This document shows positions 15,339 to 34,179 of a stretch of DNA of 38,733 bases, in pieces. The stretch comes from Candidatus Woesearchaeota archaeon. Its GTDB lineage: Archaea; Nanobdellota; Nanobdellia; Woesearchaeales; UBA12501. Both the position numbers and the translations under genes were made by a program. Where the stretch lies: contig JACOVM010000072.1 in assembly GCA_016177345.1 (NCBI GenBank), positions 1 to 38,733 on the forward strand, written 5' to 3'. Each line of letters opens with the position of its first letter. The first letter of the stretch is position 1. Below the pieces are notes generated by a model. It was not told the origin of the DNA and ran no database searches. It saw only the letters and a list, made by a program, of their open reading frames with translations.

Positions 15339-15351
15339 GTACATCTTGGTT

Positions 15352-17847
15352 ATGCCTGTTATGATCCCTCGCAGGCTGCTCGAATGGCTCGCTAAGCCAT
15401 TGCAAAAGCAAGAAATTGCTCAGTACGTTAAGCTCCCCTCTCTTTTTGTTGTAGAAGATTTAGAGGTAGCTAACGAGCTGCGCCACAAGGTTGATCCGCG
15501 AGAGTACCTTATTGTTCATGATCCATCCCTCATCAATCATCCTGATGCAAGCTATCCTTCTCATCCACGAATTGCGGGAAAGCGTCGTGAAGGCATTCTT
15601 GTTCGAGGGAAAAATCTGAGCCATAACATGGCAGGCCTGTATCTGCGCCAGCATTCTTCGTCCCAAAGCCCAGAGGCAGCACTTCGATCTCTTGAAGAAA
15701 GCGTCATGGAAACTTCCGCTAAAACCCAGCAGAATATGCAGTCCTTAGAGTCAGCTGCAAGGTCTCTGCTCACGGAGCACGGAGACAATGAGGGCAATGT
15801 AGGTTATGATCAAGCCCAATTGATGGCTCTCATTCATGATATTACTGTTGCCCAGTTCGAATACCCGGAGCATTTTATTCGAGAAGCAGTCCAGAACGCT
15901 GACGGTGCATGGCAGAACAAGCTCGAAAATCGCATTGACGTCTTTATCGATAGAAAAAATAGGACCATCAGAGTAGCAGACAAAGGCAGAGGAATGGACA
16001 AGCCTGTGGTAGAGAATGCTTTTTTCAATTTGTACGCCTCATTAAACGAAGCATTATCCTACGCTGCAGGAAAATTTGGGATCGGCGCTGTCAGTTTCTT
16101 TGGGCTCAAGCATGACCATGTTCGAATTGACACGAAGCAAGAAGAGGGCGACGCTATCAGTGTTCTTGTTGATGGCCAATTACAGAGAGAGTATGTTCCG
16201 AGCACGCAGCACGAGCGCGGAACAACGGTAGAGATCAAGCTGGCAGGCGATTCACCCATTGATTTTGATAAGATTGTTGAAATCCTTCGAGAAGACTGCT
16301 GCTATATCGAAACCCCGACCTACCTTCACGATAATGGAACAACAGAATTCATAAACAAGGAATTAACCCCGGAAGGGGTGCAAAACACGGTCGGCTTTTC
16401 AGAGAAAAATGTTCAAGGATATGTTCGCCTTGGCTCCGGTGAATTGAAATTGCTCTCTCACCGAATCAGGCTGCGCAGCATTCCAACTGTTGGCTATTCT
16501 GGCGTTGTCAATTGTGCAGGATTAGATACTACTTTTTCACGAGACACCGTGCTTGATGACCCGGTACTTCGTGATGTTCTTCGTTATGTGAATATTAAGC
16601 AGGCTGATCTTCGCCGAAAAGCCCTTGACAATAACAAGCTTTCCTTAGAGGCGCGATTGAATGATTACCAGGAATTTCTCCACAGCAGATTTTTTGATGG
16701 AAATGGGGTAAATGCCCAGTTTCTTCGGGCTCATGCACAATCCATCCTCTATGGGTCTCGCTTTCAAGAATATACCTGGGAGAAAATGAGTGAGCAGTCA
16801 ACTAGTGTCCAGTCCGGCTTTGGTCTTCGGCCAGCAGGATACCTTTTTGGATACGCTCACGCTATTGGCTCAACAATGCTTCAGTGGGCTAGAAAAAAAC
16901 TGGGGATAAAACAGTATGCCCTGGTATGTCACACAGGTGATATGAGTTGGACAAAACGCGAAGTCATAGATGCTAGGTCATTTCATGATCGTTTGCCATC
17001 CACCACTAGTGATGTTGGCGAGGCTGGATTTGCAGGGCTATTTCTTTCTACAGTGACTACTCTCTTAGGCGGTGCTGCGGCGTATGGGCTCACCAAAGAT
17101 GGAAGATGTTTTGCCCCGTTAGGCGTGATGGTGGCATACGATGTGGTATGTGCGGCAGAATCTGCTGCCAGAATCGGTTATCACATGGGGAAAGAATTGG
17201 TGAAGAAAGCCTTTGTTCACCACGCTAATCACACATTATACGGAAGCTATATTCCTGGTGCAGAAGCTGATACCAAAACTGCAAAGTCTATTGCTGGCGT
17301 AGCATTAGGTCTTGCTGGAATTGGCGGATTATTGTGGGGTGTGCCGTATGTTATCTCTCATCTTAGTACACCAGATACTCCATCAGTAAGCCAACCGAAA
17401 AATATTGAAGAGCGAGCTGAAGAACCAAAAGAGCACTCAAGGCAGGCTCCTCAGCCAACACCGCAGCATGGAGAACAGGATAGCGATATTCCATACGAGC
17501 TCCCTCTCGGCATTGCCTTTGGCACTGGCCTTGCCATGACCGGATTTCTTCATCACCGAAATAAGAGGAGAATGCTTCAGCCCTATACTGACTCGTTAAC
17601 TGCTGACGAGCAAAAACTGCTCGATGGCGTTCAGGAGTCATTAGGGGCTCTTCCAACTCATGTTCCAGTTTATTATGGCAGCAATCTTGGCCGAGACCAC
17701 CCCGCATTTTTAGTAACGAGGCGTGGCATTATCTTGAACAGGACAAGAAAAGAGGGAATAGAACCAGCCATGCCAGCCTTAGCCTATGCCAGCACAATAT
17801 TAAAAGATGCATCCTTATCTGATCGCATCGCGGAGAAACTATCATGA
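15352..17847 (+). CDS. HSP90/HtpG-like GHKL ATPase with a C-terminal multi-TM region
   Basis: N box REAVQNADGA, G1 box ADKGRGMD and G2 box GKFGIGAVSFFG (compare HSP90 GQFGVGFYS). Four or more hydrophobic helices follow after about aa 560. The ORF-track start (15346) is TTG, so ATG 15352 or 15361 is more plausible. Confidence 0.8.
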   Translation: MPVMIPRRLLEWLAKPLQKQEIAQYVKLPSLFVVEDLEVANELRHKVDPREYLIVHDPSLINHPDASYPSHPRIAGKRREGILVRGKNLSHNMAGLYLRQHSSSQSPEAALRSLEESVMETSAKTQQNMQSLESAARSLLTEHGDNEGNVGYDQAQLMALIHDITVAQFEYPEHFIREAVQNADGAWQNKLENRIDVFIDRKNRTIRVADKGRGMDKPVVENAFFNLYASLNEALSYAAGKFGIGAVSFFGLKHDHVRIDTKQEEGDAISVLVDGQLQREYVPSTQHERGTTVEIKLAGDSPIDFDKIVEILREDCCYIETPTYLHDNGTTEFINKELTPEGVQNTVGFSEKNVQGYVRLGSGELKLLSHRIRLRSIPTVGYSGVVNCAGLDTTFSRDTVLDDPVLRDVLRYVNIKQADLRRKALDNNKLSLEARLNDYQEFLHSRFFDGNGVNAQFLRAHAQSILYGSRFQEYTWEKMSEQSTSVQSGFGLRPAGYLFGYAHAIGSTMLQWARKKLGIKQYALVCHTGDMSWTKREVIDARSFHDRLPSTTSDVGEAGFAGLFLSTVTTLLGGAAAYGLTKDGRCFAPLGVMVAYDVVCAAESAARIGYHMGKELVKKAFVHHANHTLYGSYIPGAEADTKTAKSIAGVALGLAGIGGLLWGVPYVISHLSTPDTPSVSQPKNIEERAEEPKEHSRQAPQPTPQHGEQDSDIPYELPLGIAFGTGLAMTGFLHHRNKRRMLQPYTDSLTADEQKLLDGVQESLGALPTHVPVYYGSNLGRDHPAFLVTRRGIILNRTRKEGIEPAMPALAYASTILKDASLSDRIAEKLS

Positions 17848-20183
17848 AACAGTTCGCATTTCGGGTTTCCTTGACAGACATGATTCGAAAGCTTCGCTAT
17901 AGATACGATAATCCTATTGATTATCTTGGCACATTTGTCGATGCGCTGTACGTGCCAGGTGTTGCTGTCGATATTGCTGTTGATGCGGAAAAGATAGAAT
18001 TGAAATCCCCAGCAAAGCTTGATGGCAAGCTGATAGAAGCGCTTGAGCAGCACAATCTTCTTGCCATGGCATCGCTTCTTCCGCCGGTGCAAGAGTACGA
18101 AGAGGTTACGATCAAGTCCGGTGAGAAAAGAGTTGTCATCGGGGCTGATAGAAAAGTCCATGTTCATTCTTCAGCTGATTCTAAGACAGCAACAGGGGAG
18201 CAGGAAGGGGGGCAGGATCCTGATACGAAGGCTGATGCCAATGTTAATGGCACTCATGTTGTTATCCGCCGAAAAGACGGCGATGGAAAAGCACAGCAAG
18301 CAGAACTGGAACGCGTTTGTGACCTCTACAAAGGATCTGATCTTGCAGTAACTGTCCAGGGCAAGTCAGAAACAAAAGATGCAAGAACAGCTGCAATGGG
18401 CTTTGATCGTGATGGCTTCCGCGGATCAGTATGGTACGCGCCAACAAAAAATGGGGGCATCCACTACTTTCACCGAGGTCGGTTCGTCAATAGTGAAGAT
18501 GCTGTTGCCGGCGTTAATATCTGCTTGTATAATCATCCATTTCAGCCAACGGTAACAAAATCAAGAATGATCACCCGGGGAAGGGCAAAGGAACATCACG
18601 AAAAGCTCCAGCAGATCATTCCAGGTATTCTTCTTGATTACCTAACCTCCCCTCAAATTGAAACGCTTCGCAAGGAATCTGAGCGGTCGTACCAGACACT
18701 ATTGAGAAGTATTGCACGGCGTTATATGGGCCATGACGTTATTCTTGAACACGTTGAACAAAACCTTCTCTTTCCTAATGACGATGGGGACTACACCCTT
18801 CATCTTCATGAGGTAGACGCCCCAAAAAATGGGGATGCTGAATTGTGGAAGGCCTTGACCGGGAATGACCTTCCCGACAAGAGCCAGTCAAGACATTCAT
18901 CTGGCGTACGGGCATTGGCATTAGGGGTTGCGCTGACGTCACTTGTTGCTTTTGGCAGTGGCTTATATGTCATGGTTTCTGGTGCGTCAAAAGAAAGCGC
19001 TGTTGACATTTCAACCATCCTTGGTTGTGCTGATGAAAAAACAGTTGGTAACATAGCTACTGCAAATCATTTCCAGATCTCCATGAACCGTGGCGCTGAC
19101 TTTATGACAAGAGAAGAGCTTGCTAAATACTTAAGCGACTATCAAAGGGAGATCAACAAGCTCATTGCATCACAGTTCTCTCTTGATCTTCTTTCGAAAA
19201 GTGGGTATGTTCGTTTTTCAGTAGGTGATAATCTTAGTTGTTTGGGTGGCCAAATCGTTTGGCGTGACATGGCTGGATCTGATACCTCTTTTTTTGTTCA
19301 GCACTGTGATACTCCTCTTCCTGTAGAACTCCAAAAATATCGTACTGCTGATCTTGATGATAAGCTTGATGCTGTTGCTGATTTCATGCAGAACAATTTT
19401 AAATATGACAGTATTCCCCCAGAAGTTGCTGCAAGGTATGCCAGCCAGCTCGAGGCAATCGCAACAGAGCGCCGGGCAGTATGTTATGGATTAAACTCGT
19501 ACGCCGGTATCCTTCTGTCAAAGTTGGGTGTTAGAATGGACGTAAGGGGTGTCGGTGGTATTCTCAATGGTATGCCTCACTTCTGGCTTGAAGTGAATGA
19601 AGGAACACCTTGGAAGCAAGACTGGCAGGTATATGACTTCAGCGGCTCTCCGATGGCACCAGAGCTTGCTGAACAAATGGAAGACTTAGCCATGCCCCTC
19701 TCTGCTGCACTTTTAGGGCCGCTTGCTCTTGCGCAGAACAACATATCTATGCCGGGGTTAACCCAACAGCTTTCTGGAGCATATGATGAACTTACAAACC
19801 ACCCGTTACAGGTGTTGTCTCTGACTGGCGGCCAGCTCATGGCTGCATCACTATTCCTTTTAGGCGGGCTTGGTGTTGGCCTTGGGGTCCAGTATGCTCT
19901 TCGAAAAACAGGGCGTGCTGTTGAACGAAGCTCCAAAGCCCCATCATGGCAGCCTCAAGGCGCGTATCATCAGCAGTGCCTTCAGCTTCGAGACCTTCTT
20001 GGAGTGGATGGCGTGGTCATCGGGCCTGACGTGAAGTATGATGGAACAACCCTTCAGGTTCCTGTCGATTATGTGAGGGCAAATCTTATCCCCCAGGCTA
20101 TTAAGTTAGTTCCAGTTGTTGCGCAGGATGATAAGGATAAGATTTCTCTCTACAATAGAATCGTGGAGGTCGTGCGGAGATAA
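17844..20183 (+). CDS. membrane protein with a transglutaminase-like (Cys-His-Asp) domain
   Basis: Overlaps the upstream stop by 4 nt (ATGA). VCYGLNSYAGILLSKLGVRMDVRGV...MPHFWLEVNEG...WQVYDFSG (nt ~19470-19650) matches the transglutaminase-core C...H...D spacing. Predicted TM helices flank this domain. Confidence 0.75.
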   Translation: MKQFAFRVSLTDMIRKLRYRYDNPIDYLGTFVDALYVPGVAVDIAVDAEKIELKSPAKLDGKLIEALEQHNLLAMASLLPPVQEYEEVTIKSGEKRVVIGADRKVHVHSSADSKTATGEQEGGQDPDTKADANVNGTHVVIRRKDGDGKAQQAELERVCDLYKGSDLAVTVQGKSETKDARTAAMGFDRDGFRGSVWYAPTKNGGIHYFHRGRFVNSEDAVAGVNICLYNHPFQPTVTKSRMITRGRAKEHHEKLQQIIPGILLDYLTSPQIETLRKESERSYQTLLRSIARRYMGHDVILEHVEQNLLFPNDDGDYTLHLHEVDAPKNGDAELWKALTGNDLPDKSQSRHSSGVRALALGVALTSLVAFGSGLYVMVSGASKESAVDISTILGCADEKTVGNIATANHFQISMNRGADFMTREELAKYLSDYQREINKLIASQFSLDLLSKSGYVRFSVGDNLSCLGGQIVWRDMAGSDTSFFVQHCDTPLPVELQKYRTADLDDKLDAVADFMQNNFKYDSIPPEVAARYASQLEAIATERRAVCYGLNSYAGILLSKLGVRMDVRGVGGILNGMPHFWLEVNEGTPWKQDWQVYDFSGSPMAPELAEQMEDLAMPLSAALLGPLALAQNNISMPGLTQQLSGAYDELTNHPLQVLSLTGGQLMAASLFLLGGLGVGLGVQYALRKTGRAVERSSKAPSWQPQGAYHQQCLQLRDLLGVDGVVIGPDVKYDGTTLQVPVDYVRANLIPQAIKLVPVVAQDDKDKISLYNRIVEVVRR

Positions 20184-26484: not shown

Positions 26485-26742
26485 CTAATTAAGGTTTTTA
26501 TAAATATTTTTTCGATGCCCTATAACTGTCACTTTAATGGTGTTATTCATTTGATCAATGTCTGCAATAACCCGATAGTCTCCCACTCTCAATTTGTAAT
26601 CTTTTCTTCCCGTAAGTCTCTCAAAAAAATGGAAAGGACTTGTTTTTGTTGATATCACTTTATCAAAAATTCGTTCTTTTATCTCTTTTGGAAGTGTATT
26701 TAGGAGGTTAATTGCTTCCTCATCAAAAGTGATCTCATACAA
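26485..26742 (-). CDS. RelE/ParE-family toxin
   Basis: DYKLRVGDYRVIADID...IKVTVIGHRKNIY is the classical RelE/ParE C-terminal signature. Confidence 0.85.
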   Translation of the reverse strand: MYEITFDEEAINLLNTLPKEIKERIFDKVISTKTSPFHFFERLTGRKDYKLRVGDYRVIADIDQMNNTIKVTVIGHRKNIYKNLN

Positions 26743-26796
26743 GAAAAGACCACCTCTTATTTTTTGCGCTCTGACAACTAAGAATTTGTTTTGGCA

Positions 26797-27048
26797 TCAC
26801 AATCCAAGCCTCTTTCGTGCCTCTGATTCGGTTAGAAACTTTCCCTTTTTTATTCTTTCCCTTGCTTTTTCAATAGCTTGGATTGTTTCCTGGCTGAGTT
26901 CAGGTTCAGCTTTGCAAGTTTTAGCTATAAATACCACTTTTTTAATTACTTCATCATAGCTCTCATTCTTATATTCCCTAAATTGGTCTAAGTCTCGCTT
27001 TGTATTTTCATGGATTTTTAGAGTAGTTATCACATCCATTCTCATCAC
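26797..27048 (-). CDS. putative cognate antitoxin
   Basis: 83-aa ORF immediately upstream of the RelE-like gene on the same strand. It is small and charged, with the typical TA gene order. The family is not identified. Confidence 0.6.
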   Translation of the reverse strand: MMRMDVITTLKIHENTKRDLDQFREYKNESYDEVIKKVVFIAKTCKAEPELSQETIQAIEKARERIKKGKFLTESEARKRLGL

Positions 27049-27105: not shown

Positions 27106-28050
27106 TCAGCTCGGCCCATTCGTCACAACATATTCCCTCATTCTCTTGCGGAGGATACTAAATGAACGTTCGCTTTGCTCTTTTCTGTCACCGCGCTCGT
27201 GCTTGCGGTACTCGAAAGGCCCGTGCCTTATCATATCAGACGTGCTTCTTCCAAGCCAGTACATGTTCCATTGTTCTCGTTCAGGCCGAGGATCCTGGAA
27301 GAAGAGCTGGATTGGATTGGTGTCCAGCGCGTCCATAATCCATGCATTGTATGGTTCAAGATCTTGAGAGACAAGAAGCTGGTATGCCACAGTAAGTAAA
27401 TTGCAGATATCGGGATCTGCGCTGACAATTCGCACTGGCCGTCGTGGAAAATGAATTGCAGCAAATACTGCATCGGTAACAAGGCGTTCATCTGCTTCTG
27501 GTTCAGCATAAAAGACAGGCGGTTGCGCCTCATCAGGCCTTACTTTCTTGACTCGGCCTTTGTATTCTATCTTGACGATAAGGCGGTGTAGTTCTTTATG
27601 TTGCTGCTGGAGTTCTGGTGTACTTCCAGGGCGAAATTCAGCCGCACTTAAGTACATGGAAAGCAGTTGTCGGTACCATGCCTTAAGTGCAGTTTCTTCG
27701 TCGAGAGAATGATCTGGCGGTATGCCGAGCCTGTTGACTTTATCAACGTCAAGCTGAGTTAGTTTTTCGCTGAGCACGAGGTCTGCTCTTGTCAATTCAT
27801 GGGCAACTCCGCTGCTGATCAGCACGTGAGGGTGTGAGAGTACTTGTTCAAGAGCACCATTGAGCTGGAGAAGAGCGGAGATATCATCGCGAAGAAGGTC
27901 TCGATAGGATCCTGCAGTTGCTATTCTTTCAGTAAGTTGATAGGGAAGGAAAACATTCGTATCAAGAAACGTCAGGCCTGGATAATCAACAATACGTTCT
28001 AATGGCTGTAGAAGTTCAGCACCAAAAACTGGCTTTATTGCCGTGTCCAT
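27106..28050 (-). CDS. hypothetical protein with PIN-like acidic motifs and a large insertion
   Basis: FLDTNVF (first Asp), GVAHELT (Glu), RLVTDAVFAAI (Asp) and RIVSADPDI (Asp) occur in the PIN order. About 110 aa are inserted between the second and third elements. This is pattern-level only. Confidence 0.6.
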   Translation of the reverse strand: MDTAIKPVFGAELLQPLERIVDYPGLTFLDTNVFLPYQLTERIATAGSYRDLLRDDISALLQLNGALEQVLSHPHVLISSGVAHELTRADLVLSEKLTQLDVDKVNRLGIPPDHSLDEETALKAWYRQLLSMYLSAAEFRPGSTPELQQQHKELHRLIVKIEYKGRVKKVRPDEAQPPVFYAEPEADERLVTDAVFAAIHFPRRPVRIVSADPDICNLLTVAYQLLVSQDLEPYNAWIMDALDTNPIQLFFQDPRPEREQWNMYWLGRSTSDMIRHGPFEYRKHERGDRKEQSERSFSILRKRMREYVVTNGPS

Positions 28051-28228
28051 CTTGTGCGGAGATATTTATGCCTTTTAATGCCTTGCCTTTAGTGTGTGAT
28101 ACGTAGCGGATTCAGGCGCGTCCTGATATTTTAGTTTATTTTATCTATTTTCTAGCCTATCTTACCTGCCTGTCTTCTTGAATTTGATAAGTTGTCCTAT
28201 ATTATATTCCATATAGAAAATAATATTA

Positions 28229-28317
28229 CAAAAAGAAATCCTGACTCTCGACGGAGGCCCTTGTGAGGGTACTTTACCAAGCTTGGCGCTTTGGTGAAGT
28301 ATCAGGATTTCTTTTTG
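28229..28317. repeat. 89-nt compound hairpin at the left edge of the foreign island
   Basis: A perfect 16-bp outer stem: CAAAAAGAAATCCTGA 28229-28244 pairs with TCAGGATTTCTTTTTG 28302-28317. The inner hairpin TACTTTACCAA 28270-28280 pairs with TTGGTGAAGTA 28291-28301, with one T:G on the + strand. Confidence 0.7.
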
Positions 28318-28346
28318 TGGTCATTTCGTCGTAAGGCAGCTCCTTT

Positions 28347-28547
28347 CTAGTGGATGGCGAGGATATCAACCCTCTCAAGGACAAGTTCGTACCCCTGGCG
28401 TCCTTGCTTGATTCCCCTCACCATCCAAGCCCTGTTCGTGCCACTCATCGGAGTCAGGAATTGCTCTACGAACTCCTTGACTGCAGGATGGTGGTCTACT
28501 TCATGCTGGTCTCGAGCAATCGTTCTGCACAGGTCACAAGTGCACAT
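28347..28547 (-). CDS. small hypothetical protein (66 aa, N-terminal CxCxxC)
   Basis: MCTCDLCRTIARDQHEVDHHP.... AGGAG lies upstream of the ATG but only 2 nt away, which is suboptimal spacing. It sits at the distal end of the island. Confidence 0.35.
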   Translation of the reverse strand: MCTCDLCRTIARDQHEVDHHPAVKEFVEQFLTPMSGTNRAWMVRGIKQGRQGYELVLERVDILAIH

Positions 28548-29493
28548 AGCTCCTAGTTCCGTGGGCTTCTACTACGTTGGGCTTCTTTACTTCGCTTGCT
28601 TTCTTGTTTTTCCTTTCGTTCTTGTTCTTTACTGTACATCATCTACTTCAACAAGGTACGGGACCACCGAATGCGTACGCGGTGCGCTTAGGGGGAAAAA
28701 AGTACGCACTCGATGGTCCCGGTTTGGAGGGAACAACACTGTGTCGACAGCGCCATACTAAAGCTGGTGTTTTCTTTAGTTGTCGCACATCTTCACTGGA
28801 ACACCAACATGAGTAATAACTCCCCCATACTCATGGTTCCCTCCTGGCGTTCTGGATATGGTGACCGTTCACGCAATGCAACCCTTCTCCTCGGAGAAAC
28901 AACATCAGGATTACGTGAACGGTCATAAGGCAGCACCTGTTTTTTGGGTTGAACAACGACCAGCATACAGCGGTTGGCTGGACAGGTGCTGCCAACGAGG
29001 CCATCGAACCTGATAAAAGAGCCGCCCCTCCCCCTGGAAAAGATGGCGTTTTATCACCTCTGCTCGATGGCCTCGTAATCTGTTAATCTTCATCTTCTGG
29101 CCTGAGGGGCAACCAAGTCGGCTTTACGGAATTGGTAATGCACCTCGCTTGCTATAGGTTTAGGTTTTATCTTGGTTGCCCTAGGAGACTGCACCTGTCC
29201 AGGAAGATGACCCCCTGTATTCGTCATACCTAGACAGGTGCAGCCTACGAGACCATCGAACCCGCGACCGAAGGGTAGGTTATTGCGCAGGGATACGAGC
29301 TCGATGGCCTCGTAAAGCGGCTGTCCACGGCAAGAGGTGAAGCCCATAGCCTCGAGCACATGGACAGCCGCCGAGCGCTTTCCAAAGGAGACGGCAAGTA
29401 ACCATTGGCGGCGCTCTCTAAGGAAGACAGCAGGTGTTCCTCACTGAGGCTCTGGATTGAGGCCAGCATCATTGAGGGTGATGCCAACAACAC

Positions 29494-29595
29494 CTGCCGC
29501 CAGAGGAGCCCTCGACCTTACGCAGTAAAGCGCAATGCACGTTAATCCCTCGGGAAGATCGGCCGTGCAAGATTGGTCGAGGGCTCATCTGGAGT
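29494..29595. repeat. long hairpin repeat, copy 1 (downstream of the 481-aa ORF)
   Basis: The left arm CTGCCGCCAGAGGAGCCCTCGAC (29494-29516) and right arm TGGTCGAGGGCTCATCTGGAGT (29574-29595) form an 18-bp stem (29500-29517 / 29575-29592) with one G:A mismatch. Confidence 0.8.
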
Positions 29596-29926
29596 TTAGC
29601 ATGTTAGTGGGATGACTGCGGCAGGCACAGGCCAGTGAGCGCCCTCCCAGGACACCGGTTGTCTGTACCTGCCGCAGTCGGGCACAGTCATCATCCACGC
29701 GGGCAAGGGTTGGTGGTGATGACTGCTGGTTGTAGAGGCAAGTGAGGCGCTTGCCGAGAAGCGACAATTTGCTTGGGGCCAAGCCTTTGTCGTCCTGGAA
29801 GCGCCTCACCTGCGGTGCCTGCCGAAACGCATTACGTTCGCGTTTCACTCTTTCGTCTTAAGGGCGCACACCCGTCAGACGACGCATGGCAGGACTTTCA
29901 TGGCAACGCGGCAAGAGTAGGTAGGG

Positions 29927-29994
29927 GCCTCGGGCCACGATCTCATGCTCTTTCTAACTTCTTCTAGAAAGAGAATCAGATCGTGACCCGAGGC
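29927..29994 (-). terminator. long two-tier hairpin just 3' of the 481-aa ORF (terminator or processing candidate)
   Basis: A 17-bp stem (29927-29943 / 29978-29994, one G:U on the minus strand) encloses a 9-bp stem (29948-29956 / 29965-29973). No T-run follows it on the minus strand. Confidence 0.35.
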
Positions 29995-30004
29995 TTGGGG
30001 AGAA

Positions 30005-30016
30005 CTAGCTAGCTAG
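30005..30016. other. CTAGCTAGCTAG block (stop codon in all six frames)
   Basis: Three tandem palindromic CTAG units give TAG in each frame on both strands. The block lies 15 nt downstream of the ORF's own TAG (30034..30032). Confidence 0.9.
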
Positions 30017-30031
30017 CCGATGGTGGGCTGA

Positions 30032-31477
30032 CTAGGCGTTCTGCGGGGCGTGCTGCGCATCCTCGAACTCGAAGCCAGCGGCGAGCTGGAACTGCTCGAC
30101 GGGGATTCCGCGGATCGCGACGATCTGGCCGAAGGCGTTCCGCAGGGCGGCCTGGTCCTCGAGCTGTTCGGCGATCTGGGAGGCCACGCGGCGGACGTAG
30201 GTCTTCGGGTCCGTCACGTTCACCTTCATGATGCCGATGTTGAACGAGTTCAGGGCGACGTTGCGCAGGAAGCGCACGGTGCCGTCCTGTTCGATCTCGT
30301 TCTGCTCGAAGCCCAGCGCCTGGCAGATCTCCTCGACGATCTCCTGCTTGAACGGCGAGATCGCCAGGTGGATCCACTGCACCAGGGAGGCGAAGGCCTG
30401 CTGCTGCTTCCGGAGGTACCGCGGCGAGATCCACTGGCCCAGCAGGTAGATCGCCACGCCGACGTAGCCGTGGTTCTCCTTGCCGAACTGGATGGTCGCC
30501 TTGTTCTGGTCCTTCGTCAGCTCGGCCTTCACAGCGAAGAGGAACTTCTCGTAGCGGCCGTACTTGTCCATCTTCACCGGCGTGCCATCGCTGTCCGTGG
30601 GCTGGAAGCCCGACGGCGTGAGGTAGTCGGTGAAGGGGGTGGGGCTCTTCGTCGTGGCATGCGGCACCTTGAAGCCCAGGCCCTCGAGGCAGCTCTGGAC
30701 CGTGGCGATGGTGCCGGTGTTGCCGTTGAGGAGGACGACGCACGACTGGTCGATGCCGCAGTCGTTCGCCATCCAGCTCAGCGGGTTGTACGGCACGTAC
30801 ACCTCGATGCTGGTGAGCTCGCCGACGTTGTTGAAAGCCGCGAACGGCCGCACGTCGAACTTGCCCAGCTTCGCGTCACGGTAGTAGCCGCCGCTCATCC
30901 CGATGACCTGGGTGAGAAGCTCCCGCATCGCGTTCTGGCTGCCGTTCGTGGCCACGTTGCGCGTCACCGGCTTCTTCTTGCCGTTTGCCAGGTCGGTGGT
31001 CACGACTTCGAGGTGGGGCAGGCCGTCGACCGCGGAGACGAAAGTGGCGTCCTTCCGCTCCTTGGTCGCGGTGATGGTGGTGAGGCCGAGGGACTGGCGA
31101 TCGCCGTAGGTCTTGGACATCGCCTCCTGGATGGCGGTGATGTTGTCGCCGAAGGCCACGATGACACCGTCCTCCGAGGCGATGCTCGCCGGGTGGGGGA
31201 GAACGTTGCCATCCTGGAGGAGCTGCAGGCGGAACTGCTGGTCCGGCGTGAGGCCGTGCGACTTCGGGGGCTGCCGGTTGCCGGTGAAGGCCGCCATGAT
31301 CAGCTCCGAGGTGACCTGCTCTTCGGGGATGCCCAGCTCGCTGGCGATGGCCTGCTTGACGTTCGCATGGATCGTCGCCTTCTGCTGGGGGTTGAAGCCG
31401 TACTGCGTGATGTTGCGGAGGTTGCTCTGGGTACGCATGTAGCGTTTCCTTTCGAACTGCATTTGCTGCTTTTCCAC
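30032..31477 (-). CDS. hypothetical protein, GC3-saturated, family not recognised (start uncertain: GTG 31477, ATG 31462 or ATG 31438)
   Basis: This is the only one of the overlapping long ORFs here whose translation looks like a natural protein (balanced K/N/I/F/Q/D/E). 31 of its last 34 codons end in G or C. The antisense and out-of-frame ORFs are R/L/G/D/A/P-rich, as expected for shadows of a high-GC gene. Confidence 0.75.
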   Translation of the reverse strand: MEKQQMQFERKRYMRTQSNLRNITQYGFNPQQKATIHANVKQAIASELGIPEEQVTSELIMAAFTGNRQPPKSHGLTPDQQFRLQLLQDGNVLPHPASIASEDGVIVAFGDNITAIQEAMSKTYGDRQSLGLTTITATKERKDATFVSAVDGLPHLEVVTTDLANGKKKPVTRNVATNGSQNAMRELLTQVIGMSGGYYRDAKLGKFDVRPFAAFNNVGELTSIEVYVPYNPLSWMANDCGIDQSCVVLLNGNTGTIATVQSCLEGLGFKVPHATTKSPTPFTDYLTPSGFQPTDSDGTPVKMDKYGRYEKFLFAVKAELTKDQNKATIQFGKENHGYVGVAIYLLGQWISPRYLRKQQQAFASLVQWIHLAISPFKQEIVEEICQALGFEQNEIEQDGTVRFLRNVALNSFNIGIMKVNVTDPKTYVRRVASQIAEQLEDQAALRNAFGQIVAIRGIPVEQFQLAAGFEFEDAQHAPQNA

Positions 31478-31591
31478 CGCTAACTTCCAAAGCGGAAGCC
31501 CCTCCTGGATTTAATAGCAGTGGTGGAGACGACAGCTGCGTTTTCACGTCTTTTCACATCAATTCTTGCTTCTTATTCACCTACTGTGCAG

Positions 31592-31675
31592 CTGCCGCCA
31601 GATGAGCCCTCGACACGTTGCTTCCCGGTGCATGGCACTGGTGTGGGGAGAGCTGGTCGAGGGCTCATCTGGAGT
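31592..31675. repeat. long hairpin repeat, copy 2 (upstream of the 481-aa ORF)
   Basis: The left arm CTGCCGCCAGATGAGCCCTCGAC (31592-31614) and right arm TGGTCGAGGGCTCATCTGGAGT (31654-31675) form a perfect 17-bp stem (31598-31614 / 31656-31672). The arms match copy 1, but the loop differs. Confidence 0.8.
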
Positions 31676-31732
31676 GGGCTTCGTGAAGACAGCCCGAGAA
31701 GTACTACGGGGGGAAACTGAGGGGGTTGAGGA

Positions 31733-31930
31733 CTAGGTTGCGGGTTCGCTCTTGTCAGCACTCGTCACCTGGATCACGGTGGGGGTGACGACCTGATCAG
31801 GGCTGGGCGGCCAGGCCTGCGTCGTGGGCTCGAAGCGGGTCTGCCGTGCTTGGGTGCCGAGCGGGTTGGTCAACAAGTTGTTGAGCCACGATCCACTGGG
31901 CTGCTTCTTGTCAGGCGGCCTCGGAAGCAT
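31733..31930 (-). CDS. small Pro/Thr/Gln-rich hypothetical protein (65 aa)
   Basis: ATG 31930 is preceded by AAGGAGG with a 5-nt spacer (ACAAGGAGGTTCTGATG). It overlaps the upstream small ORF by 20 nt. Confidence 0.4.
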   Translation of the reverse strand: MLPRPPDKKQPSGSWLNNLLTNPLGTQARQTRFEPTTQAWPPSPDQVVTPTVIQVTSADKSEPAT

Positions 31931-32123
31931 CAGAACCTCCTTGTTCAGCCTTCTTCGCATTCATTCGCTGCAAAGCGATGGCGAGCTGGTTGAAGCCGCT
32001 GGACTTCGGGGTTGAAGAGGGCGTCTCGGTCACATCCTTGCTTCCGTCGCTTCCCTTGATGCCATCTCTGGATGCGTACTCGGTAGCCATGATGTGAGCG
32101 AATTCATCCGTTCGAACCTTCAC
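31911..32123 (-). CDS. small hypothetical protein (about 70 aa; start uncertain)
   Basis: GTG 32123 is preceded by TAGGAG with a 5-nt spacer. The alternative start is ATG 32090 (MATEYASRDG...). Confidence 0.35.
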   Translation of the reverse strand: MKVRTDEFAHIMATEYASRDGIKGSDGSKDVTETPSSTPKSSGFNQLAIALQRMNAKKAEQGGSDASEAA

Positions 32124-32292
32124 GCGATCTCCTACGAACAATAACAGTTTTACAGTTTTCAACGGAGCCTTACTACAGGGTTTTCCACGGTTCTCCGTCG
32201 TGACCAGTGGAAAAGGGCTTCTTCTCGAGAATACAACCTACATTAAACTACATCGCACTCGTCCTACACGCTATCTGTTTCAGAAAACAGGC

Positions 32293-34179
32293 TTATGAAA
32301 GCGTGCGTCCACGTGTTTCAGGGTTTTCCAAGAGAAGAGCTCCGCTAGGCGTTATGTGAATAATCTTCACCATACCTTTTTCGCTTCGCACTTCTTCTAC
32401 AGAAATTAACCCCAAATCTACCAATGACAGCTTTAGTTCGTTTCCTTTGCGGATTGACAAACAAAGTTGTTTGTAGATTTGCGTGGTGGCTAGATAGCCG
32501 GAATTTTGGCGTAGGGTTGCCAAAAATTCATGTTGTTGGTTGGTTAAGTTGTAGGAAAGGGATATTGGAATGGAGGTATCTTTATCGTTATCATCATCAC
32601 TAGCAACAGCAACATTATCATCATAAGTATTATCATGAACAATGCCTTCTGCGTGCTCTTGAATGTTTCGCAATGTTTCAACGTCATCGTTTGTTGCCAC
32701 TCTGCTGAGCTTGAATACCTTGTCCAGCTTTTCGAGCTGCCGCTGGAGCTTTTCTGTATCGCATGACTCTTGAAAATGCTTAAGCCTGCGATGGTCTTTA
32801 GCCTTTCCTTTCATCAGGGTGGAAAGCGCATCATCAGTGATGATATTCTTCTTGACGTCAATAAACGGTGCCTTGATGAGGAAAGGATTGTAGAATCGCT
32901 CTGCTAATTTTACAATTGCGCTGCCGACCGGGAGCATGGAGAAGTATTTTCGCTGCTCGCGCATTTGCATGAGGTTGGAGACACATTCTACATCTGCTGG
33001 AAGGATCTGCTGGAAAGCTATGTTGCAGGCAGAATTTCCGGCAACCGTGTCGCTGAGCTTAGAAATGTGCTGGTCGAGGCAGATTAAGCTAACGCCATAT
33101 TCCCGGATTTCCCGGTAAATCATATCGGTGATGCTTTCGGTGAGGAAGTTTGGCTTTTCTTTGAGAAAAATGTTGTGGGCCTCGTCAACAATGATGGCGA
33201 GCCTAAACTTGTTGCTTTCGTAGTTGTTTGCTTTCATCAGCTTGTACAGGTAGGTCAGGAAGAAGCTGGTGAAGAATTTTTTCTCGCTCGTGCCAAGATT
33301 ATGGAGTTCAAAGACCACTTGCTTATCCATAATCTCTTCAACAGTGTACGCGTCTTCTCCCTTGTAATTGATCGCCTCACCGAAGTCTCCATAGGTAAGG
33401 GAGGAGGCGATTCGAAGAGCGCTTTCAAGCCATTCTGATTCTCGGCCATGGCGCCGCGCACTCATATCTGCTTCATAATCTTCAAGGCGATCTTTGACTT
33501 GGTGCCAGGTTGGATAATTCTCGCTGCCTTCATAGACGCCAAAGTCCTTAAATGCCCTATCGAGTGTTTCGCGCAGCAGCTTATGGACGCCGAAGCTTGC
33601 AAAGAATGCGTCATTGATCAGATCGCACAAAATGTTAATCCATTCCTTCGCCCCAATATTTTTTGGTGGGCGATTAATGTTGAGCTTGAAGTGGTTGCTG
33701 ACTCGTTCGTTGCCGACAGTAAAGCAGTGAACGCTTTTGTCTTTATTCATGAGCTGGCGAAAGCTTTTCTTCCAATCAAATGCGATGAAAGGCTTTCTCT
33801 TCATGACAAAATTGCCGAGAAGATGGAATGCAAAGGTTGTTTTTCCGCTGCCGCTCATGCCAGAGATGCAGACGTGTCTTGGCCAGTCATTTTCCCGCAG
33901 CCCAAATTCATACAGGTTTGTTTTGGCGTACAAGATCGTGCCGAGAGGATATTCTCCTGCCACGACACCTTGCCTTGGTGGCTCAAGCATGATGTCCTCA
34001 TCAGAAAGAAGGCCTTTGTTGAGGTACTTGTGGTAGAGGGAATGAAGCGCTTGCTCAATTTCGATCTTGCTCTCCACTGAATCAGCAAGGCGGTACTTGA
34101 GATAGATCTGGTCGATTTTCTCGCCGAAGACTGGCTTCAGCTTCTTGCAGACTTCCTCGGTAGTGAGCGCACGTTCCAT
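32293..34179 (-). CDS. HerA/FtsK-superfamily (DUF87-like) P-loop ATPase with a C-terminal winged-helix-like domain
   Basis: Walker A is ISGMSGSGKTT and Walker B is RLAIIVDEAHN, followed by LICLDQH. The last ~90 aa (EFLATLRQNSGYLATTQIYKQL...) look wHTH-like. Confidence 0.8.
   Translation of the reverse strand: MERALTTEEVCKKLKPVFGEKIDQIYLKYRLADSVESKIEIEQALHSLYHKYLNKGLLSDEDIMLEPPRQGVVAGEYPLGTILYAKTNLYEFGLRENDWPRHVCISGMSGSGKTTFAFHLLGNFVMKRKPFIAFDWKKSFRQLMNKDKSVHCFTVGNERVSNHFKLNINRPPKNIGAKEWINILCDLINDAFFASFGVHKLLRETLDRAFKDFGVYEGSENYPTWHQVKDRLEDYEADMSARRHGRESEWLESALRIASSLTYGDFGEAINYKGEDAYTVEEIMDKQVVFELHNLGTSEKKFFTSFFLTYLYKLMKANNYESNKFRLAIIVDEAHNIFLKEKPNFLTESITDMIYREIREYGVSLICLDQHISKLSDTVAGNSACNIAFQQILPADVECVSNLMQMREQRKYFSMLPVGSAIVKLAERFYNPFLIKAPFIDVKKNIITDDALSTLMKGKAKDHRRLKHFQESCDTEKLQRQLEKLDKVFKLSRVATNDDVETLRNIQEHAEGIVHDNTYDDNVAVASDDDNDKDTSIPISLSYNLTNQQHEFLATLRQNSGYLATTQIYKQLCLSIRKGNELKLSLVDLGLISVEEVRSEKGMVKIIHITPSGALLLENPETRGRTLS

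Follow-up and report, generated by a model that had tools for sequence, protein, structure and literature searches.

The DNA considered here (the window) is a stretch of 38,733 nucleotides from a Candidatus Woesearchaeota archaeon and represents one complete contig of a 1.05-Mb genome with 44% G+C, which is distributed over 115 contigs and is 72% complete; an archaeal-type peptidyl-tRNA hydrolase is encoded on it. On its minus strand lies an orphan gene, and downstream of this gene, in a gene-free stretch (28050-30030), are the modules that form the subject of this analysis, each composed of two adjacent hairpins, termed X and Y. The features on which the argument depends are listed below. The scores are those of R1, a covariance model built from modules 1 and 2 alone (A2), which are its training members, and searched with filters off.

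30032-31438, minus strand: the orphan gene (P0004), 468 amino acids, flanked by modules.
28659-29994, minus strand: the whole 1.4-kb array downstream of the orphan gene, consisting of about 15 long hairpins that abut one another.
28927-29080, minus strand: module 1, with an X hairpin (arms 29064-29078 and 28994-29007), one base, and a Y hairpin (arms 28982-28993 and 28929-28940); 177.8 bits.
29185-29317, minus strand: module 2, in which the X hairpin (29246-29315) abuts the Y hairpin (29187-29245); 139.4 bits.
29424-29593, minus strand: third module, X at 29500-29592 and Y at 29428-29499; 31.1 bits, E 1e-6.
31526-31673, minus strand: leader module, X at 31596-31675 and a Y core reading CAGCUG; 30.7 bits, E 1.3e-6.
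L006:11417-11556 in G001, a genome of the same genus: a module matched by R1, 127 nt before the ATG of the orphan gene of G001.

A sequence-only reading of the window had described modules 1 and 2 as tandem pairs of stems, A and B, with shared stem sequences, divergent loops and one compensatory exchange of a base pair. The helices lie where that reading had placed them. In module 1, GGCAGCACCTGT (28929-28940) pairs with ACAGGTGCTGCC (28982-28993) at 12 of 12 positions to form stem A (I18), and stem B pairs at 13 of 13 (28995-29007 with 29064-29076, I15). In module 2, stem A is likewise fully paired (29189-29199 with 29233-29243, 11/11, within I2), and stem B pairs at 11 of 12 positions (29248-29259 with 29301-29312, within I8), its single mismatch being an A.C on the plus strand that becomes a G.U on the minus strand, where the X helix of this module comprises about 20 bp including four G.U pairs. 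The stem blocks that the two modules were said to share are recovered as segments of 33 nt with 88% identity (28978-29010 and 29230-29262, D1). The trailing TAA, also proposed as a shared element, falls within a 17-nt block that is 100% identical between the two modules (29062-29078 and 29299-29315, D7), and to this extent the proposal holds, but the TAA is not conserved beyond them.

The proposed swap, A28932:T28990 against T29190:A29242, is present in the module alignment (pair 91/149). Comparing the 28 stem pairs common to modules 1 and 2 on the minus strand, we found 24 identical pairs, one double swap, two changes from G-C to G.U, and one from C.A to C-G; all four differences maintain or add pairing. 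The loops are as divergent as had been stated, since their global alignments gave z-scores of -0.99 (427 of 500 shuffles scored equally high) and -0.30 (317 of 500). On the minus strand, the fold z-scores of the four hairpins range from -4.1 to -8.0, and no other site in the genome contains the 12-mers of stem B. Arms that are 83-100% identical and loops that align no better than shuffled sequence were found in two independent paralogue pairs, namely module 1 with module 2, and the leader X hairpin with 29500-29592, while the arm differences that separate the two module types are compensatory. Because the arms are 83-100% identical and the loops cannot be aligned, the stems appear to be constrained in both sequence and pairing, and the loops to be unconstrained. 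Such stem conservation with free loops fits recognition of the stems by a partner, and does not fit neutral decay. A coding explanation for the conservation was rejected, and the conservation is taken as non-coding, because the small minus-strand open reading frames (ORFs) read the common 17-mer in different frames and match no family. The arms of modules 1 and 2 could also pair with each other (I16).

Three additional two-hairpin units were found with R1, namely the third module, the leader module and the module of G001, and all of them are on the sense strand of the orphan gene. The Y core of the third module is CAGGUG/CACCUG, with central pairs flipped compared to those of modules 1 and 2; this is the hairpin at 29430-29497 in which the sequence-only reading had noticed an inverted CAGGTG/CACCTG core. 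The leader module lies 85 nt upstream of the ATG of the orphan gene, and its X arms are nearly identical to the arms of 29500-29592, with which they have 14-mers in common. We also observed that these X hairpins (31596-31675 and 29500-29592) could pair crosswise, the 5' arm of either with the 3' arm of its counterpart, to give a long-range helix enclosing the whole orphan cistron. R1 matches on the plus strand are off-register readings of the same palindromes. Modules 1 and 2, the third module, the leader module and the G001 module make up a five-row alignment, A5, from which the plus-strand matches were excluded by choice of E-value. The earlier idea of a duplicated structural unit is thus extended to four copies in this locus plus one in a second species, where it occupies the orthologous position in the leader, and a module sought at related loci is present in G001 ahead of the orthologous orphan gene, as detected by R1.

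The units of A5 are 133-170 nt long, with stems of 12-20 bp, and have the consensus GAGSCCMUYGAS for the X core and GGCNGCASSUG for Y, with a G.U at the second Y pair. The X/Y junction, ...GGCUC... / GGCNGCASSUG..., is common to them, and at the center of the Y stem CANNTG takes the form CACCUG, CAGGUG or CAGCUG, with a complementary partner in every case. Standard pairing is found in 97.1% of 139 stem cells, compared to 30-48% when partners are slid by one to three columns. Changes on both sides are seen at 14 of the 28 pairs, a number reached by none of 500 shuffles, and a further 10 are invariant. RNAalifold recovers both stems unaided. The pairing rate, the double changes and this recovery support the selection for the helix that had been suggested from modules 1 and 2. 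The ten invariant pairs, together with the common junction, argue for homologous units rather than any hairpins.

The alignment also bears on the strand. A5 contains 11 G.U cells compared to four non-pairs, and the second pair of the Y stem is a G.U in four of the five copies; because of this excess and retention of G.U, the informative strand appears to be the minus strand, on which the orphan gene is in sense, and this points to RNA. Summed over the five modules, folding on the sense strand gives -365.5 kcal/mol and on the antisense strand -327.1 kcal/mol, with each module favoring the sense strand. For 11 of the 15 array hairpins, the minus strand gives the more stable fold, with a G.U count of 35 compared to 18.

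Modules 1 and 2 occupy the 11th to 14th hairpins of this array, counting from the orphan gene. Linkers between the array hairpins are 0-1 nt, and those hairpins that belong to neither the X nor the Y type are a heterogeneous set. Perfect hairpins with arms of at least 11 bp number 145 genome-wide (0.14 per kb), nine of which are in 28600-30030 (6.3 per kb), a 45-fold excess; the next best 1.5-kb bin holds three. The array is unique within the genome. The locus is real, and an assembly artefact is excluded: it is present with no differences in independent contigs from four DNA runs of one groundwater study, and both flanks are bridged by contigs, one of which covers 28000-31238 and another 28268-32300. 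The contigs from the four runs contain no variants, so that no population-level covariation can be read from them.

Beyond this genome, the element has a narrow distribution. A DNA search with the array gave no match in 60 relatives, R1 gave only two chance-level matches (E 0.5 and 0.7) in 100 relatives, and the model R2 gave none in 39 further relatives or in 150 genomes of the order. Protein-guided locus searches of genome, metagenome and viral contigs found nothing, nor did a search of metagenome contigs with the X/Y junction as a DNA pattern. The 17-mer had seven single matches in viral contigs, with the partner arm in none of the seven, and these were dismissed as chance. Within the genome, a BLAST search with 28900-29330 returned itself only, and the stem 12-mers are confined to the locus, in a genome that is 72% complete. 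The loops and the rest of the array have a best match of 16 nt elsewhere in the genome (E 0.3), and blastn against a phage collection matched neither the locus nor the loops; a role of the loops as guides or spacers was therefore rejected, as nothing matches them in the rest of the genome or in phages. No account of such a two-hairpin module was found in the literature under the terms used. The two-hairpin unit thus has the appearance of a new structured RNA element with a narrow distribution, restricted to the genus.

The orphan gene that the modules flank is itself unusual. Its G+C content at third codon positions (GC3) is 95.5%, compared to 0.63 for the next highest and a median of 0.44 among 622 ORFs of at least 200 amino acids, with ordinary GC1 and GC2, and its region is the only part of the genome exceeding 56% G+C. 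In a full HMMER scan of 1.84 billion representatives, the only homologues of the protein were P0005 and P0006. A profile of the protein was run on 400 genomes of the phylum and on 400 of the order, and in both sets it found G001 alone; a weak match (E 0.002) in the unpublished genome G494 was set aside and supports no claim made here. A word-based search returned the protein itself only. It has no Pfam, PHROG or PADLOC family, no usable match in the ESM Atlas, and only matches with E of at least 0.25 in a profile search of the PDB; the AlphaFold model from three sequences has a predicted local distance difference test score (pLDDT) of 35.5. The G001 orthologue (L006:11684-12364, plus strand) has a GC3 of 93% and encodes a protein that is 35-37% identical, such that the synonymous bias has been kept between the species despite fast protein evolution. 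The contig of G001 ends within the orphan gene, and the C-terminal half and the downstream neighbor were not found in that genome. The remaining features around the modules are as follows.

32293-34179, minus strand: a P-loop ATPase of 628 amino acids, with sub-threshold likeness to CedD, CedB, VirB4, HerA and PADLOC mad8, and a C-terminal regulator-like tail.
31441-31525, minus strand: the leader Z hairpin, a third hairpin with single-stranded UUAAAUCC; its G001 counterpart is L006:11596-11690 (plus strand).
30005-30016: the palindrome CTAGCTAGCTAG, which has a stop in each of the six frames and lies between the orphan gene's own stop codon and the first hairpin.
29100-29186, minus strand: the Z-position hairpin between modules 2 and 1, more stable on the plus strand.
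28862-28925, minus strand: the Z-position hairpin after module 1, which carries GUAAUCCUGAUG.
28619-28726, minus strand: a possible degenerate module, weak, with a hairpin at 28659-28721 and the X-like arm GGGACCAUCGAG (R2 17.5 bits, E 0.015; D8 79%).
28228-28318, minus strand: the terminal hairpin, with perfect arms of 17 bp (I5), then a U-rich run.

The ATPase is 75% identical in G001, where it is likewise upstream of the orphan gene in the same order. Given the diverged orphan protein of G001, its GC3 of 93% and this shared gene order, the locus is regarded as old and syntenic rather than a recent insertion. Small conserved ORFs, together with the ATPase gene, lie upstream of the leader unit; for example, 31911-32162 (minus strand) and L006:10661-10861 of G001 (plus strand) both begin VKVR-D...TEYE-R-D, and match no family. 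As for the Z hairpins, UUAAAUCC is identical here (G000) and in G001, and the inner Z stem has two compensatory pairs, which from two sequences is weak. GUAAUCCUGAUG resembles UUAAAUCC by eye, but the comparison of the whole Z hairpins is not significant (z -0.03). AAUCC-like words are also seen after modules 1 and 2.

The palindrome CTAGCTAGCTAG is single copy genome-wide, and the tetranucleotide CTAG is about four-fold under-represented (1063 occurrences compared to about 4097 expected). At the other end, the hairpin at 28228-28318, the only one followed by a U-rich run, is likely to be the end of the transcription unit, as judged from its form. The extreme GC3, the six-frame stop palindrome and the final U-tailed hairpin would together fit an RNA that is stable and untranslated beyond the gene. 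In the interval between the array and the terminal hairpin is an ORF of 66 amino acids (28347-28547, minus strand) with the pattern C-x-C-x2-C ... H-x3-HH and no match in Pfam or PADLOC, and directly past its stop is a remnant resembling the Y 3' arm (D3). Elsewhere in the window, 26485-27048 (minus strand) is likely a toxin-antitoxin pair, in which a ParE-family ORF of 85 amino acids (E 3.2e-6) is preceded by one of 83 amino acids with a sub-threshold match to DUF7557. The region 15346-20183 (plus strand) holds adjacent large ORFs of 833 and 779 amino acids, neither of which matches PADLOC; the former has weak HATPase_c, HtpG and sacsin-like ATP-binding matches, and the latter has no family.

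Comparison with known families did not place the module. Searching the whole window against Rfam 15 at gathering scores gave no match, and searching 27900-30200 with E up to 10 gave only ten sub-threshold matches (seven microRNA-precursor families, one small RNA, one small nucleolar RNA and one long non-coding RNA region), the best at 31.1 bits compared to a threshold of 74. An AUGAUGA word near 29690 that resembles a C box, and a match to the Rfam family sR11 at E 7.9, were judged to be chance. A CRISPR-like or otherwise regular tandem array was rejected, as Tandem Repeats Finder (minimum score 30) reported none in 28150-30030 and the direct-repeat families have two copies each, with the exception of one 10-nt family (D6) at the outer edge of the array. 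Intrinsic or archaeal oligo-U terminators were rejected because the modules, whose ends read GYC-UU, -UC or -UG, have no U-run there. A scan for terminator-like sites found six, compared to 4.6 +/- 2.1 in shuffles; the sigma-70 and terminator scan is uninformative here and does not apply to archaeal promoters. No AT-rich promoter-like box was read ahead of the leader unit in this genome.

Integron attC sites are defined by core sites and an integrase, and repetitive extragenic palindromes (REP), bacterial interspersed mosaic elements (BIME) and miniature inverted-repeat transposable elements (MITE) by many dispersed copies. The modules are similar to all of these in being imperfect palindromes with conserved arms and variable centers, clustered in gene-free DNA. 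However, the hairpin bases read UUACGAGG..., GGCNGCA... and CCAGAUGAG..., without attC core sites, and no dispersed copies, as would be expected of REP/BIME or MITE, exist in the genome, which is 72% complete. No integrase or transposase was found among those ORFs of the window that were scanned with Pfam and NCBIfam, which are a part of the total.

ToxI units are near-identical direct repeats of about 36 nt upstream of an endoribonuclease gene. Like the modules, ToxI arrays are tandem structured RNA units beside a single protein gene, but here the loops differ among units and most copies are downstream; a ToxIN-like type III toxin-antitoxin system was rejected, since there are no short tandem repeats and the orphan protein matches no toxin or defence family. 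The put RNAs of phage HK022 consist of two stem-loops with one unpaired base between them, are located in the leaders of early operons, and act on RNA polymerase. They are like the modules in having adjacent stem-loops joined by a single base, a leader location, multiple copies, and stems that are conserved more than loops; unlike the modules, which are 133-170 nt long with most copies behind the gene, they are about 70 nt long, bacterial, and act on a bacterial polymerase.

The closest in working are the bacterial intercistronic and terminal stabilizing hairpins such as those of puf, whose intercistronic hairpin region was reportedly described by Klug and colleagues in 1987. In both cases, sense-strand stem-loops border a cistron within a longer operon, here a putative one, are non-coding, and lack the U-tract of a terminator. 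Sense-strand structure at the cistron borders, which characterizes stabilizers that flank mRNA, is found here, with position and orientation that hold in two species. The present case differs in that there is a defined two-hairpin module with sequence-conserved stems, present on both sides of the cistron, plus an array of 1.4 kb; moreover, the host is an archaeon with other RNases.

Taken together, we hold with moderate confidence that the modules are cis-acting units of structured RNA, restricted to the genus, that flank the orphan cistron and have a putative role in stabilization, processing or protein binding. Under this hypothesis, the modules would be paralogous copies of a structured RNA that is transcribed from the minus strand with the orphan gene. 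The X and Y helices, with their one-base join, could stack to form a single rod, each end of which would carry a variable loop. The archetype would be the unit in front of the orphan gene in the two species, and it would have been multiplied at least three times behind the gene in the genome studied here. The orphan cistron may belong to a longer transcript, in which the units would mark and protect the ends of the cistron, acting in cis either by blocking exonucleases or by serving as processing sites or insulators, and a protein that reads the conserved stems may mediate their action.

Several points weigh against this interpretation. The alignment A5 was fitted to the structure, four of its five rows are paralogues of one locus, and it represents only two species. 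Templated repair can alter both arms of a palindrome together without any selection on RNA. The margin in favor of sense folding is only 1.0-3.3 kcal/mol for three of the five modules, and the opposite preference, for the plus strand, is seen in four of the 15 array hairpins (including stem A of module 1) and in the leader X hairpin. We infer transcription, the transcript ends and the strand solely from the G.U asymmetry, and neither an archaeal promoter nor a terminator was identified in the vicinity of the units. Further, the near-identity of the paralogue arms exceeds what pairing needs; it fits sequence-specific recognition, which could equally take place at the level of DNA. Finally, an array of 1.4 kb is much longer than known stabilizers require.

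Among the alternatives, the one that fares best, although we consider it unlikely, is that each unit is a small structured RNA in its own right, about 130-280 nt long, cut from a precursor and acting in trans as a partner, scaffold or antidote of the orphan protein, which would bind the stems and leave the loops free to vary. The head-to-tail order of the units with linkers of 0-1 nt, the single copy upstream of the gene with several downstream, stem sequences that are conserved beyond the need for pairing next to unrelated loops, and the fast evolution of the orphan protein (35-37% identity, compared to 75% for its neighbor) would all suit such a system. However, no processing signals were identified, the orphan protein is without a recognizable RNA-binding or nuclease domain (model pLDDT 35.5), and the loops match nothing elsewhere in the genome beyond the 16 nt noted above (E 0.3).

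The sequence conservation of the arms among paralogues would also be expected if the palindromes worked as DNA, either as protein-binding sites or as single-stranded hairpins of a replication or transfer origin used with a DNA-translocating ATPase, and the neighboring gene product (32293-34179) does resemble the CedD, CedB, VirB4 and HerA ATPases. G.T pairs are tolerated in single-stranded DNA hairpins, so the strand bias would also fit a single transferred strand, and for the leader X hairpin and four of the 15 array hairpins the plus strand gives the more stable fold. We nevertheless rate this possibility below the trans-acting RNAs and regard it as quite unlikely. The half-sites lie 19 to about 60 nt apart, a spacing without conservation, unlike that of dimeric DNA binders; the conserved G.U in four of the five Y stems would turn into an A.C mismatch on the opposite strand and in a cruciform; the orientation and position of the units are fixed relative to the orphan gene in two species; and, to our knowledge, fifteen abutting hairpins are unlike any known transfer origin.

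Lower still we place a functionless by-product, in which local duplication and template switching would make and copy palindromes, which a gene-free stretch would tolerate. It is consistent with an array known from this genome only (the G001 contig ending inside the gene), with DNA searches and models that match no other relatives, and with the heterogeneity of the hairpins other than X and Y, and yet it seems improbable to us given that the leader module has been kept in a second species in which the orphan protein is just 35-37% identical, that ten of the 28 pairs never vary and compensatory changes occur among the others, and that randomized loops between arms of 83-100% identity are not what neutral decay would yield. 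Copies of a mobile palindromic element (MITE or REP-like), to which inverted arms flanking variable centers might be attributed, or the coding of small proteins in the minus-strand ORFs of 56 and 89 amino acids that span the modules, can be dismissed as very improbable, as there is no copy beyond the locus in 1.05 Mb (of a genome 72% complete), no adjacent transposase among the ORFs scanned, and the ORFs read the common block in different frames without a family match.

A further reading, which we regard as improbable to the same degree as the functionless by-product, would be an undescribed, self-contained RNA-protein system, in which the fast-evolving orphan protein or the CedB/VirB4/HerA-like ATPase recognizes the sequence-conserved X and Y stems. 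The transcript, with hairpin units at its front, a coding part of 95% GC3 and the 1.4-kb array as its tail, would be a nuclease-proof RNA that is nearly all double-stranded or locked by G/C, and it would be assembled, packaged or passed on as a particle-like cargo, for which the array would provide multiple packaging or assembly signals with loops that can vary freely.

Returning to a cis-acting structured RNA unit flanking the orphan cistron, the claim is a modest one, as it concerns two species. If true, it would add a structured RNA element not yet filed, from an uncultivated archaeon with a small genome. The rule of conserved stems with loop turnover, together with the most extreme codon bias of the genome, would point to strong selection on the RNA itself and not on the protein alone. 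Little is known about signals for mRNA stability and processing in such archaea, and a repeated module with a clear consensus may therefore offer a handle that can be tested in vitro.

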